A stretch of DNA of 32,000 bases from Nitrospira tepida (GTDB taxonomy: Bacteria; Nitrospirota; Nitrospiria; Nitrospirales; Nitrospiraceae), in contig NZ_OX365700.1 in the NCBI RefSeq assembly GCF_947241125.1, forward strand, positions 1,787,245 to 1,819,244. Direction: 5' to 3'. Of this stretch, positions 6,167-21,855 are shown one piece after another. The position numbers and the translations under genes were made by a program. The notes under the pieces were generated by a model. That model was not told the DNA's origin and searched no databases. It saw only the letters and a program-made list of their open reading frames with translations. Within the stretch, counting starts at the first letter, position 1, and each line of letters opens with the position of its first letter.

Positions 6167-7633
<1,467 letters not shown>

Positions 7634-17248: not shown

Positions 17249-17309
17249 TCCTAATCCAAGAATAAGCGAGACCCCATAACCCCGTATTTCCTTCGCCCCA
17301 TCGGGGCGG

Positions 17310-17406
17310 GGGAGAGGGGAGGGTGAGGGGCACATCCTCACGGTCCCACCCTCACCTTTCTCCTCTCCCTCAACACCCGTTGCATTGAGGGGAGCAACGG
17401 GTACCC
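17310..17406. repeat. GC-rich imperfect inverted repeat followed by an inverted copy of the GGGTACCCGTTGC hairpin
   Basis: GGGAGAGGGGAGGGTGAGGG (17310-17329) faces CCCTCACCTTTCTCCTCTCCC (17349-17369). ACCCGTTGC (17375-17383) pairs with GCAACGGGT (17394-17402), then ACCC. The reverse complement nearly equals the 13271-13302 copy. Confidence 0.55.
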
Positions 17407-17746
17407 GAGGGCGAGGAAGCAGGATTGACGCAGGGACGGTCACCTCGTCAGCAGACATTATTATCGGATTAGGGTTAGCTATGACGGCTCTTCTGAAAAT
17501 CGTGTAGGTAGTGGGTAGAGCGAATGGCTCAGATCGCCTCGCCTGACGTTCGACCCGTTGCATTCAAAGCCGGGCAACTGGTGCCCCGCGATTCCAGGCC
17601 TCACCCTGATGCGTTATTGTCGGTGTCCTCGCGCTGTTGTCCTGTTGCCCTCGTGCGATCATTGTTCAGCGCTTTCCCTGTGACGGCCGCGTCGGAGCAG
17701 CGGTTGCCCACCTCCGTAAATACTGGTATTTCTCCAGACCCGCTGG

Positions 17747-17910: not shown

Positions 17911-19194
17911 ATGCCAAGCGATCAACGGCCTGAGACTCACAAAACAGTCTTCATCAGTTATCGACGACGGCAAAGTTGGCAAACTGCGCGCCTCATATAC
18001 TCGCATCTACGCGCGCATGACTATGACGTCTTCATGGATGTCGAGAGTATCGACAGCGGCCAATTCGATACCATTATCAGGAATCAAATCGCGGCGCGGG
18101 CGCATTTTCTAGTTGTTCTCGGTCCTGGTTCGATGGAAGGCTTCGACAATCCTCAAGATTGGCTCCGTCAAGAAATCGAGCATGCCATCAGCTTAGAACG
18201 TAACATCATTCCGATTCTTGAAGAGGGTTTCAAGTTCGAGAAGATCACACCGCCCCCAGGTCGGCTACAAGAACTGCCGAGGTACAACGCCCTCACCGTG
18301 CCACATGAATACTTCGACGCAGCCATGCAGAAGCTCCGGGAACGATATTTAAGAAAGCCGGTGCAGGGACCAATTCAGGCGACACCGGAGCGTGAAATAC
18401 CCGCTGTCGAGCAAAGGCTTGAAAAGACACGTCAAGAAATCGCTCGTGAATCCGCAAGGGAGGACCCAAAGCCATCCCCTGGTGCTCCTTCAGCGAGGCC
18501 GCGAGTGGAGTCACGGTCGGCCGAAGCGCCAGCCGGCATGGTGAAAGTGCCCAAGGGCCCGTTCCTCTACGGGGAGGATAGACATCGTGAGACGATCGAT
18601 CATGATTATTGGATCGGCATCTATCCCGTGACGAACGAGGAATTTCGTGCCTTCATCTTGGCGGGTGGCTACGAAAATCAGGCCTACTGGTCCCAAGAGG
18701 GGTGGAGATGGAAGACGGAAGAGAACATTCGGATTCCGGCGTCTTGGAATAACCCCAAATTTATTAAGCCCGACCATCCAGTGGTTGGGGTGAGCTTTCA
18801 CGAAGCTCAGGCCTATGCCACCTGGGCGCGCAAGCGCTTGCCGACGGAACAGGAGTGGGAAAAGGCGGCAAGGGGCACGGACGGGCGCATCTACCCCTGG
18901 GGTGACGAGTTCGATAAGAACAAATGCAACAGCCTCGAATCCCGTCTGGATAGCACCTCGCCTGTCAGCAAGTATCCCGAGGGCGTGAGCCCGTATGGTT
19001 GCTACGACATGGCCGGCAACGTGGGGGAATGGTGTGCGGTTTGGTATGAACAGAAACAACTTCCTAGTGCGGTCCGGGGCGGGGCCTGGTGCCAGAAGTC
19101 ACCGTCCCTGCGTGCCTGGCGACTTTTCCATATCGAGCCCGGCGGCCGGGACAGCTCCCTCGGGTTCCGTCTGGTCCAGGACATTTCCGAATAA
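17911..19194 (+). CDS. DGR target protein: N-terminal TIR domain, charged/Pro-rich linker, C-terminal FGE-sulfatase (SUMF1-like, C-type-lectin fold) domain carrying the VR
   Basis: TIR_2-like N-terminus KTVFISYRRRQSWQTARLIYSHLRAHDYDVFMDVESIDSGQFD...HFLVVLGPGS...DWLRQEIEHAI...IIPIL. FGE-like C-terminus MVKVPKGPFLYG...YWIGIYPVTNEEFRAFI...HPVVGVSFHEAQAYATWARKRLPTEQEWEKAARG...GNVGEWC...VRGGAW...LGFRLV. No signal peptide or TM segment. GAGG lies 8 nt upstream of the ATG. Confidence 0.8.
   Translation: MPSDQRPETHKTVFISYRRRQSWQTARLIYSHLRAHDYDVFMDVESIDSGQFDTIIRNQIAARAHFLVVLGPGSMEGFDNPQDWLRQEIEHAISLERNIIPILEEGFKFEKITPPPGRLQELPRYNALTVPHEYFDAAMQKLRERYLRKPVQGPIQATPEREIPAVEQRLEKTRQEIARESAREDPKPSPGAPSARPRVESRSAEAPAGMVKVPKGPFLYGEDRHRETIDHDYWIGIYPVTNEEFRAFILAGGYENQAYWSQEGWRWKTEENIRIPASWNNPKFIKPDHPVVGVSFHEAQAYATWARKRLPTEQEWEKAARGTDGRIYPWGDEFDKNKCNSLESRLDSTSPVSKYPEGVSPYGCYDMAGNVGEWCAVWYEQKQLPSAVRGGAWCQKSPSLRAWRLFHIEPGGRDSSLGFRLVQDISE
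19069..19194 (+). repeat. Variable repeat (VR) at the 3' end of the target gene
   Basis: Aligns without gaps (offset 1639 nt) to 20708-20833. Where the other copy has AAC/AAA codons, this copy has TGC, CAG, AAG, TCC and CGA. Confidence 0.6.
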
Positions 19195-19238
19195 CCCTTT
19201 GCCCTTTGTCCTTTGACCCTTTACCCTTCCGAAATGCT

Positions 19239-19267
19239 CCCTCTCCCGAATTGTGATTGGGAGAGGG
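19239..19267 (+). other. Perfect 9-bp stem hairpin downstream of the VR
   Basis: CCCTCTCCC (19239-19247), an 11-nt loop, then GGGAGAGGG (19259-19267), 45 nt after the target stop codon. It is absent downstream of the TR copy. Confidence 0.5.
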
Positions 19268-19283
19268 TTGGGGTGAGGGAATC

Positions 19284-19640
19284 ATGGCCACCACTCTTCC
19301 GCAAGCCGTGCAAGCCTGCCACGAGTTGCTGCTCTGGCTGATCCCGCAGCTCGACAAATTTCCCCGCTCGCGCCGGTTTACATTGGGCGAACGGTTGGAG
19401 GCCGGGTCGATCGAGGTCTTGGAGCTGCTGGTTGAAGCGGCCTATACGCACCATAAGACAGCCTCCCTGCATCGCGCGAACCTGCGATTGGAAGTCGTGC
19501 GCCATCTCTGGAGGCTGGCTCACGAATTGAAGGTGATCGCGTTGCGCCAGTATGAGCATGGCGCGCGGCTGTTTGATGACCTTGGGCGGCAGATCGGCGG
19601 CTGGCTCCGCAGTCGCGATCCGTCTCAGATGCAGCCATGA
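19284..19640 (+). CDS. avd: DGR accessory variability determinant (Avd, four-helix-bundle protein)
   Basis: About 118 aa. The segment CHELLLWLIPQLDKFPRSRRFTLGERLEAGSIEVLELLVEA...LRLEVVRHLWRLAHELKVI matches the four-helix-bundle / Avd family pattern. It sits between the target and the RT. The stop overlaps ATG 19637 (ATGA). Confidence 0.85.
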   Translation: MATTLPQAVQACHELLLWLIPQLDKFPRSRRFTLGERLEAGSIEVLELLVEAAYTHHKTASLHRANLRLEVVRHLWRLAHELKVIALRQYEHGARLFDDLGRQIGGWLRSRDPSQMQP

Positions 19641-19712
19641 CACGCCTTGCCAATCTCTGGCCGGAACTGGTGAGTTTTAAGAACCTACTCGACGCGTATC
19701 GGAAGGCGCGCC

Positions 19713-20711
19713 GTGGGCAGTGTTGCCGTCGCGGAGTTCGGCCTGAATCTGGAGCGCGAACTGTTGCGCTTGCGGCGCGAGCTTCAGGACGGGACGTATC
19801 GCCCAAGCAAGTATCGTCTGTTCACGATCTACGAGCGCAAGCCGCGCGTCATCGCGGCAGCGCCGTTTCGCGACCGGGTTGTGCACCACGCGGTCATGAA
19901 CGTGATCGAACGGCCGCTCGCCCGGACGTTTATCGAGGATTCTTACGCCTGCCGCCACGGCAAGGGGGTCCATGCGGCGGTGGACCGCTATCAAGCCTGG
20001 GCGCAGACCTATCGGTATGCCCTGAAAATGGACGTGCGCCAGTACTTCCCGTCCATCGATCACGACCTTCTGAAGGAAAAGCTGCGGCGACGGATCACAG
20101 ACTTGCGCGTCTTGGACCTGCTTGATCGCATCATCGATGGATCTCCTGGAGGAGACAGTGAGCCCCATTACTTTCCCGGCGACGACCTCTTCACGCCGAT
20201 CGATCGGGCCGTGGCTATTCCCATCGGCAACCTGACGAGCCAGTTCTTTGCCAATCTCTATCTCGACGATCTGGATCACCATATGAAGCAGGTCCTGCGG
20301 GTCCGGCCGTACCTTCGCTACGTGGACGACATGGTGGTGCTGGACCAGGACAAGACCCGGTTGGCAGACATTCGCGCAGCCGTCCGTGAGCGGCTTGCCG
20401 CCGATCGGCTCAGGCTCCATCCCGATAAGGCCCATGTGACGCGCACGGCCGATGGGTTGAACCTGCTCGGCTATGTCGTGTTCCCGAATCGCCGTCGGTT
20501 GCGGAACGACAACGGCCACCGGTTCGCGCGCCGATTCCGCCGGATGGCGCGGGCCTATGGAGCCGGGCGACTGGAATGGGTCAAGGTGGCGGCCTCGGTT
20601 CAGAGTTGGATCGGGCACGCTCAGCATGCCGATACGGAGGGCCTGCGCCGGGCGATCTTCTCCCAGGCTGTGTTTACGAGGGGAGCGGGCCAAGCGACGG
20701 CCTGCGCGTGA
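19713..20711 (+). CDS. DGR-type reverse transcriptase (core ORF); the apparent N-terminal about 26 codons lie in another frame at 19637-19715
   Basis: RT motifs are present: AAPFRDRVVHHAV, YALKMDVRQYFPSIDH, the DGR-diagnostic IGNLTSQFFANLYL, YLRYVDDMVVL, LHPDK and LGYVV. The frame starting at ATG 19637 encodes MTRLANLWPELVSFKNLLDAYRKARRG, which resembles the usual DGR RT N-terminus. Confidence 0.85.
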   Translation: MGSVAVAEFGLNLERELLRLRRELQDGTYRPSKYRLFTIYERKPRVIAAAPFRDRVVHHAVMNVIERPLARTFIEDSYACRHGKGVHAAVDRYQAWAQTYRYALKMDVRQYFPSIDHDLLKEKLRRRITDLRVLDLLDRIIDGSPGGDSEPHYFPGDDLFTPIDRAVAIPIGNLTSQFFANLYLDDLDHHMKQVLRVRPYLRYVDDMVVLDQDKTRLADIRAAVRERLAADRLRLHPDKAHVTRTADGLNLLGYVVFPNRRRLRNDNGHRFARRFRRMARAYGAGRLEWVKVAASVQSWIGHAQHADTEGLRRAIFSQAVFTRGAGQATACA

Positions 20712-20833
20712 TCCGTGGCGGTTCCTGGAACAACAAACCGGAGAACCTCCGTGCCTCGAACCGGTACGGGGTCCAGGCCGGCGGCCGGGACGGTACCATC
20801 GGCTTCCGTCTCGTCCAGGACAGGGACCAATAA
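20708..20833 (+). repeat. Template repeat (TR) of the DGR, non-coding
   Basis: An adenine-rich copy of the VR, reading V I R G G S W N N K P E N L R A S N R Y G ... G F R L V Q D. It starts at the RT stop codon. It shares the identical blocks GGCGGCCGGGAC (20780-20791 = 19141-19152) and TAACCCTTTG with the VR copy. Confidence 0.65.
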
Positions 20834-21154
20834 CCCTTTGTTCCCTGACCCGTTGCTCTCCTGAAAGAAATTGCCCCGTCCCTTTCTCATGAGAACAGGA
20901 AGGACAGAGACCATCGTCTGTCCCTCAAGACCCACCGTCCAGCCTCCGAGTCTCGATCAACCGCTGCCAATGGGAGGACGCAACGATCGGATGACGACAT
21001 GGTTCTGACGATCCGGCACCCAAGCTCAATGTGCCGATCGCACGGCAGGAGGTGACAGCAGGAGAGGATGTGAGCGGCGGCGTCGGATTTCGTGCGTTTT
21101 CTCGTGCGCTGTGGCCTATGGTATGATCCATCCCAATCGAGGATCGCCGCGTAG

Positions 21155-21451
21155 ATGGAATTCGAGTGGGATTTATCAAAGGAACTGAGGAACATACGCA
21201 AGCACGGGGTGACATTTTCAGAAGCGGTGGAATCGTTCCTCGATAAGAAGGGTTTTCAACTCGTTGACGCGAAGCATTCTGTGAAGGAGAAGCGGTTGTT
21301 CTGGGTGGGTCAAACCTCGACAGGACGGCTCATCACAACACGGTTTACCATGAGAGGCAGCAGGATTCGTCTCATTGGATCAGCCGAATGGCGAAAGTTT
21401 CGGAGGTTATACGATGAGAGAACCAAAGCTCGAACACCTGAAGGTGGATGA
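21155..21451 (+). CDS. brnT: BrnT-family (DUF497) type II toxin
   Basis: MEFEWDLSKELRNIRKHGVTFSEAVESFLD matches the feWD..K...N..KHGv.F.EA signature. About 98 aa, and it overlaps the downstream antitoxin ORF. Confidence 0.8.
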   Translation: MEFEWDLSKELRNIRKHGVTFSEAVESFLDKKGFQLVDAKHSVKEKRLFWVGQTSTGRLITTRFTMRGSRIRLIGSAEWRKFRRLYDERTKARTPEGG

Positions 21452-21692
21452 GGCAGGCACGGCCAAGCTTCGGGCAACATTTGCGCGGCAGAAGGCTGTA
21501 CGAATCACCATCAATATCGATCCCGGAAGCTACCGAGGTCTGAGACGGGTTGCTCGGGAGACCGGTGTGCCTTATGAAACCTTGATAAGCTGGCTCTTGA
21601 GGATGGACGAGGACAGGCGAGCCACCATGGAGACTCGCCTTAATCGGCTGGAGCAAGAAGTCAAAAGAATGAAGCGGATCATGGTTGCCTGA
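21414..21692 (+). CDS. brnA: BrnA-like antitoxin
   Basis: VRITINIDPGSYRGLRRVARETGVPYETLISWLLR resembles the BrnA pattern (a ribbon-helix-helix-like region with the G.PYQTLI motif). ATG 21414 is preferred over the tracked start at 21375. It overlaps brnT by 38 nt. Confidence 0.7.
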   Translation: MREPKLEHLKVDEAGTAKLRATFARQKAVRITINIDPGSYRGLRRVARETGVPYETLISWLLRMDEDRRATMETRLNRLEQEVKRMKRIMVA

Positions 21693-21820
21693 ACGCTGTC
21701 GACGATGGTTGACCCTTCTCCTTCCGGTCGTCCTGTTCGTACAGGAGTCGATGATTACCGACTCTTAAACAGTGTCCTTCTCCGCCGGACGTTTGATCAA
21801 CTGGTGTGACCACCGGTGTC

Positions 21821-21855
21821 GGCGTCCGTCTCGTCCAGGACCTTCCCTAACCCTT
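21821..21855 (+). repeat. Orphan third copy of the VR/TR 3' end
   Basis: GGCGTCCGTCTCGTCCAGGAC matches the TR (GGCTTCCGTCTCGTCCAGGAC, 20801-20821) at 20 of 21 positions. It is followed by ...TAACCCTT as in the VR and TR, and no homologous gene body lies upstream (in-frame stop at 21794). Confidence 0.45.

Follow-up and report, generated by a model that had tools for sequence, protein, structure and literature searches.

The locus described here lies in a 32-kb segment of the Nitrospira tepida chromosome (the window, to which all coordinates refer) and has the layout of a diversity-generating retroelement (DGR). The cassette consists, in order, of a gene for a protein with TIR_2 and FGE-sulfatase domains (the target), avd, a DGR-type reverse transcriptase (RT) gene and a repeat of the target 3' end in the position of the template repeat (TR). 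All of the cassette genes listed are on the + strand. Open reading frame (ORF) analysis confirmed both the ORF coordinates and the target-avd-RT-TR order of an original prediction for this DNA. The 427-aa target product is 100% identical to WP_289268283.1, and the identical sequence is present in many assemblies. The features of the cassette, including the variable region (VR) of the target, are as follows.

17911 to 19194, + strand: target gene, 427 aa, TIR_2, charged linker and FGE-sulfatase, cytoplasmic (NCBI WP_289268283.1)
17944 to 18336, + strand: SARM1-like TIR domain, residues 12-142, with the candidate catalytic Glu88 at 18172-18174
18532 to 19176, + strand: FGE-sulfatase / C-type-lectin-fold domain, residues 208-422 (Pfam E 4.7e-53)
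19069 to 19201, + strand: former VR, now fixed, a gap-free match to 20708-20840
19160 to 19267, + strand: conserved VR 3' flank and hairpin (CCTTTG-rich flank 19160-19235; hairpin 19239-19267)
19284 to 19640, + strand: intact avd, 118 aa (Pfam bAvd; NCBIfam DivGenRetAVD equivalog)
19637 to 19716, + strand: ancestral RT start and first ~26 codons (MTRLANLWPELVSFKNLLDAYRKARRG), now out of frame, with an ATGA overlap with the avd stop
19714 to 19717, + strand: net 8-nt deletion and RT frameshift; at this point six intact homologues have 8 nt more
19713 to 20711, + strand: remaining RT frame, 332 aa from GTG (Pfam RVT_1; IGNLTSQ and YVDD)
20698 to 20766, + strand: TR-like 5' half of the post-RT repeat, with AAC AAC AAA ... 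AAC retained
20767 to 20866, + strand: VR-like 3' half of the post-RT repeat, with A-substituted codons, an in-frame stop and a VR-type flank

Repeat, RNA module and reverse transcriptase

Intact relatives of the cassette provided the standard for comparison; related loci are cited by L numbers and homologous proteins by P numbers. Nitrospira has an abundance of RT homologues at 72-86% identity, almost all of them 360 aa long. The layout of these loci is target, avd, an RT start that overlaps the avd stop by 4 nt, and a TR starting 13 nt ahead of the RT stop. The targets are TIR_2-nSTAND1-FGE proteins at L087, L171 and L174, DUF4062-nSTAND1-FGE proteins at L088, L094 and L099, and an nSTAND1-FGE protein adjoining a SIR2 gene at L090. 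The window and L088 share synteny (gene order slp, target, avd, RT, TR, toxin-antitoxin, Zn peptidase), and the slp to Zn-peptidase site of L088 holds an intact DGR with the DUF4062-nSTAND1-FGE target. The TRs of the clade are very similar between loci.

The predicted gap-free copy of the target 3' end after the RT was recovered at an offset of 1639, with 20712-20840 aligned to 19073-19201 at 69.8% identity (blastn E 1e-18). Over 19069-19194 the two copies differ at 41 positions, 14 of them TR adenines and 27 C, G or T, and the adenine-templated differences that had been predicted were thus not found. TR adenines are somewhat enriched among the mismatches (14/26 adenines versus 27/100 non-adenines, Fisher p 0.017). 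About 30 related DGR loci were scored by the same TR/VR script as N. tepida. Under this common scoring the N. tepida pair has 13 of 39 mismatches at adenines and is a clear outlier. All mismatches fall at adenines in L090 (17/17), L094 (10/10), L105 (14/14), L115 (16/16) and L126 (19/19), as do 17/18 in L097, and the remaining loci mostly have 75-100% of their mismatches at adenines. A search of the window for a better cognate VR (blastn, word size 7, both strands) returned only the 70% match and short relics.

The AAC/AAA-rich TR of the original prediction exists in the 5' half of the repeat, where the AAC/AAA codons stand; the 3' half, the stop and the flank are of VR type. Positions 20706-20766 are identical to the canonical TRs of L087, L088 and L090 at 53-56 of 61 positions (87-92%). 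At 20767-20802, 11 of the 15-17 differences from the canonical TRs hit TR adenines, and by this pattern the segment looks like mutagenised VR sequence. The end of the repeat (20823-20866) contains an in-frame stop and is identical to VR flanks at 29-31 of 44 positions (66-70%) versus 15-16 of 44 (34-36%) for TR flanks. Recombination between a TR and a VR would produce such a TR-head/VR-tail chimera. Loci with a second target shortly after the TR exist, as L174 shows.

In >45 related DGRs the TR is directly followed by a structured RNA of ~130 nt that is conserved among them (alignment A3, model R1). It has an invariant GGGTRTCCATGA core plus a covarying hairpin, as at L087 9188-9320 and L090 9180-9312. 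Compensatory changes occur in 18/27 predicted pairs across 28 loci, and covariance model R1 recovers the RNA in 18 held-out loci with scores of 45-123 bits. Rfam holds no family for this TR-adjacent RNA, which we designate the clade-specific counterpart of the spacer/priming region. When R1 was run with filters off over the whole 32 kb, the best score for the RNA module in the window was 9 bits (E 0.12). One of the relatives, L097, is otherwise canonical and carries a ~280-nt insertion with inverted repeats (GTAGGGTGGGCATCGCCCACC…) between the RT stop and the TR (2038-2317).

The RT carries IGNLTSQ and YVDD and belongs to the DGR clade, as predicted. Its remaining frame is 72-86% identical to 360-aa Nitrospira DGR RTs, and the intact homologue P0123 (360 aa, 83% identical to the window RT) has Bordetella bRT 8ub7 as its best PDB match (E 3e-48), which spans the N-terminal segment and the I/LGxxxSQ motif. 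Both predicted RT starts, 19637 and 19713, exist, but they lie in different frames owing to a net 8-nt deletion. The 360-aa homologues have the same 4-nt avd/RT overlap and the same N-terminus as the 19637 frame, and the 19637-19716 segment (MTRLANLWPELVSFKNLLDAYRKARRG) aligns to bRT residues 11-38. The 360-aa length with the conserved N-terminus was counted 96 times among the RT matches listed. In the six intact homologues the 8-nt difference lies between ...RRG and VAEF..., and in a near-identical strain (L179, 98.8%) GGCAAAGG is inserted exactly at the deletion point. The sequence GGAAGG lies 6 nt upstream of GTG 19713. NCBI annotates a 332-aa product here and not a pseudogene. The RT remainder deviates at 2 columns that are >=98% conserved, by D70A and by a G-to-A change in the GIPxG motif. 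Avd scores 97.3 bits against NCBIfam DivGenRetAVD (cut-off 80) and is 81-83% identical to the Avd of intact relatives.

Strain comparisons were used to examine variation in the VR. Because L001-L006 are essentially one strain and uninformative, protein identity over 57 contigs was replaced by a comparison of true strain variants. The 90%-identity cluster of the target contains only two full-length variants, both with M75I and R307G and one also with R183K, all outside the VR. Strains L175-L178 have 7-67 single-nucleotide polymorphisms (SNPs) per 9-15 kb, none of them in 19069-19201 or 20708-20850. No VR difference was found among protein variants P0001, P0242 and P0243 and the contigs of strains L175-L178, despite the SNPs elsewhere. 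The target-gene SNPs at 18135, 18458 and 18829 are all non-synonymous (M75I, R183K and R307G), and R307G restores the family consensus.

Sister lineages carry lesions of their own. In L179 (Logan SRR25435851, 1-330) the slp end is joined to RT codon ~15 via 300 unrelated nt; it has no target, no avd and no RT 5' end, yet still contains the 8 nt together with the same chimeric TR. P0248 has a further RT frameshift near YVDD. The chimeric TR is shared with L179, which suggests that it was the first lesion.

The VR itself differs from the family at four scaffold positions that are 74-94% conserved (S392A, P397S, S403W and R405L), none of them matching a TR adenine. Its 3' flank (19160-19235) shares 97% identity with the flank of the VR in the L087 target, an unrelated STAND-type protein that is actively diversified. 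The hairpin at 19239-19267 is conserved in relatives, and its top pairs are weakened in N. tepida. Flank and hairpin together (19160-19267) are presumed to be a target-recognition element like the initiation of mutagenic homing (IMH) site.

Target protein, its family and its neighbourhood

HMM searches with the 427-aa protein found both of the domains that had been predicted. Pfam TIR_2 matches residues 13-114 (E 1.2e-11, 45.6 bits, cut-off 28) and FGE-sulfatase matches residues 208-422 (E 4.7e-53). A phmmer comparison of the TIR domain with the human SARM1 TIR gave E 1.4e-22 over 131 residues, and identity to the SARM1/TIR-1 TIR is ~32-37% across ~135 residues, a closer likeness to SARM1 than the original prediction had assumed. 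SARM1 DWVHKEIVTA aligns to target DWLRQEIEHA. The predicted candidate catalytic residue, Glu88, thereby falls on the SARM1 KEI motif, whose Glu we take to be E642; Glu88 is invariant across 36 homologues, and all invariant TIR residues are kept. Foldseek with the AlphaFold model superimposed the TIR domain on SARM1/TIR-1 TIR with TM-scores of 0.81-0.84 and root mean square deviations of 2.0-2.7 A, and its top matches for the FGE domain were the FGE-like domains of EgtB/SenA/OvoA. The model is moderate (mean predicted local distance difference test score 67, VR <50), with confidence <50 at residues 323-370 and 391-405, and it was not used to argue that the VR is surface exposed. TIR matches to bacterial defence profiles are weak for PADLOC ThsB (E 2.4e-9) and for NCBIfam ThcB4 (E 6.6e-11, 41.7 bits versus a cut-off of 220).

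No transmembrane helix is predicted in the 427-aa protein (maximum Kyte-Doolittle 19-residue mean 0.98), in agreement with the original prediction. Nor does the target contain a STAND NTPase (nSTAND1/NACHT), since its only Pfam domains are TIR_2 and FGE-sulfatase, separated by a charged linker of 90 residues, and it has no similarity to the STAND regions of L087, L088 and L090. Judged by profile and alignment, the target is a SARM1-like TIR protein with a conserved candidate catalytic Glu, fused to a C-type-lectin-fold domain that ends in a DGR-type VR.

Short TIR-FGE proteins (~400 aa) are abundant in Nitrospira and are 42-53% identical to the target over 97% of the query; most of its best 120 matches carry TIR_2 and FGE-sulfatase. 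The closest homologue, P0002, is 81% identical, has the same architecture and has the downstream gene at the same 90-nt spacing. This pair forms a divergent branch of the short family that lacks an 8-residue TIR insertion. The FGE domain of the target is only 29-34% identical to that of STAND-type targets, so that the target did not arise from the STAND proteins by deletion.

The hypervariable columns of the short family (entropy >2 bits) coincide with the AAC/AAA/GAG/ATC codons of canonical TRs. L097 has a short-family-type FGE domain beside an intact cassette, and 17/18 of its mismatches are at adenines; the short family has therefore been DGR-diversified. The predicted DGR-diversified TIR receptor accordingly stands for the family and for its past, in which the hypervariable columns are TR-adenine codons; it fails for the N. 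tepida element as it is now.

No RT of this clade was found within 6 kb of 20 other short TIR-FGE genes, and an RT match upstream of the gene at L050 is only 27% identical. At L007 a 31-codon avd fragment (74% identical) lies at 7355-7447, directly 3' of an RT-less short TIR-FGE gene, and looks like another decayed cassette. The possibility that L007 is a remote target of the intact DGRs L087 and L090 from the same metagenome-assembled genome was rejected on 17-19 non-adenine mismatches. P0061 and P0289, two TIR-FGE proteins with 94% identity, were compared for VR turnover within a cluster. Residues 1-305 are identical, and all 24 differences fall in the last 90 (306-395). The differences reach upstream of the VR, which suggests exchange or recombination of a C-terminal segment rather than clean adenine mutagenesis. 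In a STAND-type relative (L088, Nitrospira sp. CP126122, 7410-7561) the target VR has a 1-nt gap relative to the TR and encodes a frameshifted C-terminus.

Two further VR-like fragments lie outside the cassette.

21819 to 21850, + strand: relic of another VR 3' end (…GVRLVQDLP followed by a stop), from repeat search family D2 (blastn E 2e-4), its translation and its match to VR flanks
17380 to 17446, - strand: tentative inverted VR-like relic between slp and the target, two collinear inverted-repeat arms

The orphan VR 3' end at 21819-21850 has stop codons upstream and a shortened VR-type flank. It lies 1 kb 3' of the TR, past a toxin-antitoxin module, and is probably the remnant of a second target. 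The arms at 17380-17446 match 19095-19113 and 19157-19177, and also 20848-20870, and are individually weak (blastn E 0.14). A long G+C-rich hairpin adjoins these tentative inverted fragments (17290-17446, - strand), and the slp-target spacer measures 660 nt in the window versus 320 nt in the syntenic L088. The toxin-antitoxin module (21155-21692), which adjoins the DGR cassette, consists of BrnT plus a BrnA-like partner. Such modules recur directly next to the cassettes of the clade, with ParE, HicAB and PIN/MazE types in relatives (L088 9765-10064; L090 3214-3985 and 10490-11130; L173 1989-2422).

Readings of the locus

The locus is probably a fossil DGR, and the receptor next to it a short TIR-FGE protein that lacks an NTPase and whose VR is frozen; this protein is a likely sensor and effector in one polypeptide. 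In intact members of the Nitrospira clade to which the DGR belongs, intracellular NLR-like proteins made of TIR or DUF4062, nSTAND1 and FGE are hypermutated at their C-terminal lectin-fold tip. We infer that the N. tepida VR was written in the past by adenine mutagenesis, because the family is hypervariable at TR-adenine codons and the VR flank and hairpin are retained. On this reading the machinery is now dead, and the steps of its decay are visible in the sequences. Recombination with a VR, or conversion by one, turned the TR into the TR-head/VR-tail chimera and took away the structured RNA that all relatives have after the TR. The RT subsequently lost 8 nt and its reading frame, and in the sister strain the loss instead took the target, avd and the 5' end of the RT. 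The VR has since drifted at non-adenine scaffold positions, remaining invariant among strains. By analogy with SARM1 and bacterial TIR biology, the target is most likely a one-polypeptide sensor-effector, now or formerly. Ligand bound at the lectin-fold face would cluster the TIR domains, and clustering would lead to NAD+ cleavage through Glu88 and to abortive infection or a signal.

Several observations weigh against a fossil. The VR flank and hairpin are retained, and another DGR could in principle act on them in trans. Avd is intact, and the two RT deviations are within the 0-5 range of intact homologues, so that either the decay is recent or the truncated RT retains some activity; an enzyme started at GTG 19713 might do so. 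The compared strains differ by only 0.1-0.6% and sample a short time. The L179 contig is short and possibly misassembled.

The original prediction held that the DGR currently diversifies the target, with the local Avd, RT and TR hypermutating the TIR-FGE protein into an anticipatory repertoire of intracellular receptors. The canonical gene order, the intact Avd, the DGR motifs in the RT and the modest enrichment of adenines among the mismatches (Fisher p 0.017) agree with such activity. It nevertheless seems highly improbable, given an RT that is frameshifted, a chimeric TR without the downstream RNA module, 27/41 mismatches at non-adenines where relatives have 75-100% at adenines, and a VR that is invariant across strain variants and public assemblies. 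A dead local cassette is also compatible with diversification in trans by an intact DGR elsewhere in the 4.73-Mb chromosome, acting through the flank and hairpin. The hairpin is kept, the VR flank shares 97% identity with the flank of an actively diversified target from another Nitrospira, TRs of the clade are very similar between loci, and short TIR-FGE genes of other Nitrospira mostly lack an RT within 6 kb. The VR also fits heterologous canonical TRs better than its own, with 22-24 adenine versus 18-19 other mismatches. Those 18-19 non-adenine mismatches persist even against canonical TRs, however, the scaffold residues are altered, and no VR variation appears among strains or ~70 contigs. 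The best 120 RT homologues include no second RT named as N. tepida, which is weak evidence. We regard action in trans as distinctly unlikely.

The preferred reading of a fossil DGR beside a one-polypeptide receptor also has to be set against decay of the target itself, in which the TIR-FGE gene is becoming a pseudogene or has a role outside immunity and the locus is debris rather than a hard-wired receptor. The change of four otherwise conserved VR scaffold residues is in keeping with decay, as are the AlphaFold confidence below 50 at residues 323-370 and 391-405, the non-synonymous nature of all three strain SNPs in the gene and its deletion from the sister strain. The ORF is intact, however, and retains the catalytic Glu and all invariant TIR residues, and P0002 keeps the architecture and the downstream gene at 90-nt spacing at 81% identity. 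We consider debris an unlikely account. A stronger version of the receptor reading is rather doubtful in our view: the short TIR-FGE protein would be a functional STAND-less pattern-recognition receptor and SARM1-like NADase whose specificity was explored by the DGR and hard-wired when the retroelement died. If true, the locus would represent a naturally occurring change of an immune receptor from anticipatory to germline-fixed, and TR x VR recombination would be the route by which DGRs of this kind are turned off.

A textbook DGR layout with correct motifs can thus be a dead element, and annotating a DGR requires that adenine specificity be tested and that an intact RT and the TR-adjacent RNA be present. 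The locus documents a stepwise path of decay, with a TR/VR chimera followed by independent RT lesions in sister strains. The abundant Nitrospira family of NTPase-less, SARM1-like TIR-lectin-fold proteins provides candidate minimal sensor-effectors in a cultured nitrifier.

Comparison with known systems

The order in the Bordetella phage BPP-1 DGR (Mtd, Avd, bRT, and a TR with its spacer RNA) is avd-TR-brt. The N. tepida element shares with it an Avd equivalog, a bRT-like RT and a VR at the C-terminus of a lectin-type fold. It differs in its avd-RT-TR order, in a target that is cytoplasmic and not a phage tail fibre, and in having no adenine specificity, intact RT or RNA module. The target resembles the SARM1 / TIR-1 NAD+ hydrolase in its TIR fold and in the position of Glu88 on the catalytic-Glu motif. 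Unlike SARM1 / TIR-1 it has no ARM or SAM domain, and only ligand binding or the linker would be left to bring about oligomerisation. Thoeris ThsB and other bacterial TIR defence proteins are related to the N. tepida TIR by weak profile matches only. The TIR is far below the family cut-offs, and the sensor is the fused lectin-fold domain; no ThsA-type partner was seen beside the target gene, and no search aimed at such partners was made.

Vallota-Eastman et al. 2020 (PMC7517822) noted TIR-like N-termini on multidomain DGR variable proteins of cyanobacteria, and in the Thiohalocapsa DGR2 target (PMC10907252) CHAT and TIR are added to the VR-bearing C-type lectin (CLec) domain common to the DGR targets of that paper. 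These proteins and the N. tepida target are alike in the direct fusion of a TIR-type domain to a diversified lectin-fold domain without a STAND NTPase. They come from other phyla, and in N. tepida the TIR domain is the sole effector and the local DGR is inactive.

Doré et al. 2024 (PMC10907252, clade 5D) describe STAND-CLec 'antigen sensor' DGRs of multicellular or aggregating bacteria, with N-terminal TIR effectors noted on some targets, and Kaur et al. 2020 (PMC7159879) describe the same kind of DGR-diversified STAND-NTPase-CLec proteins. The concept of a TIR effector coupled to an intracellular sensor that a DGR diversifies is thus already in print (PMC10907252, PMC7159879, PMC7517822), and its novelty was over-rated in the original prediction; the N. 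tepida locus opens no new class of system. The N. tepida target differs from STAND-CLec targets in having no NTPase and an FGE domain 29-34% identical to theirs, beside a defunct DGR. The intact Nitrospira relatives belong to the STAND-CLec 'antigen sensor' DGRs of PMC10907252 and PMC7159879. The N. tepida locus shares with that group the target-avd-RT-TR order, the VR flank, a lectin-fold sensor joined to a TIR effector, and an RT 72-86% identical to the Nitrospira RTs beside TIR_2/DUF4062-nSTAND1-FGE targets.

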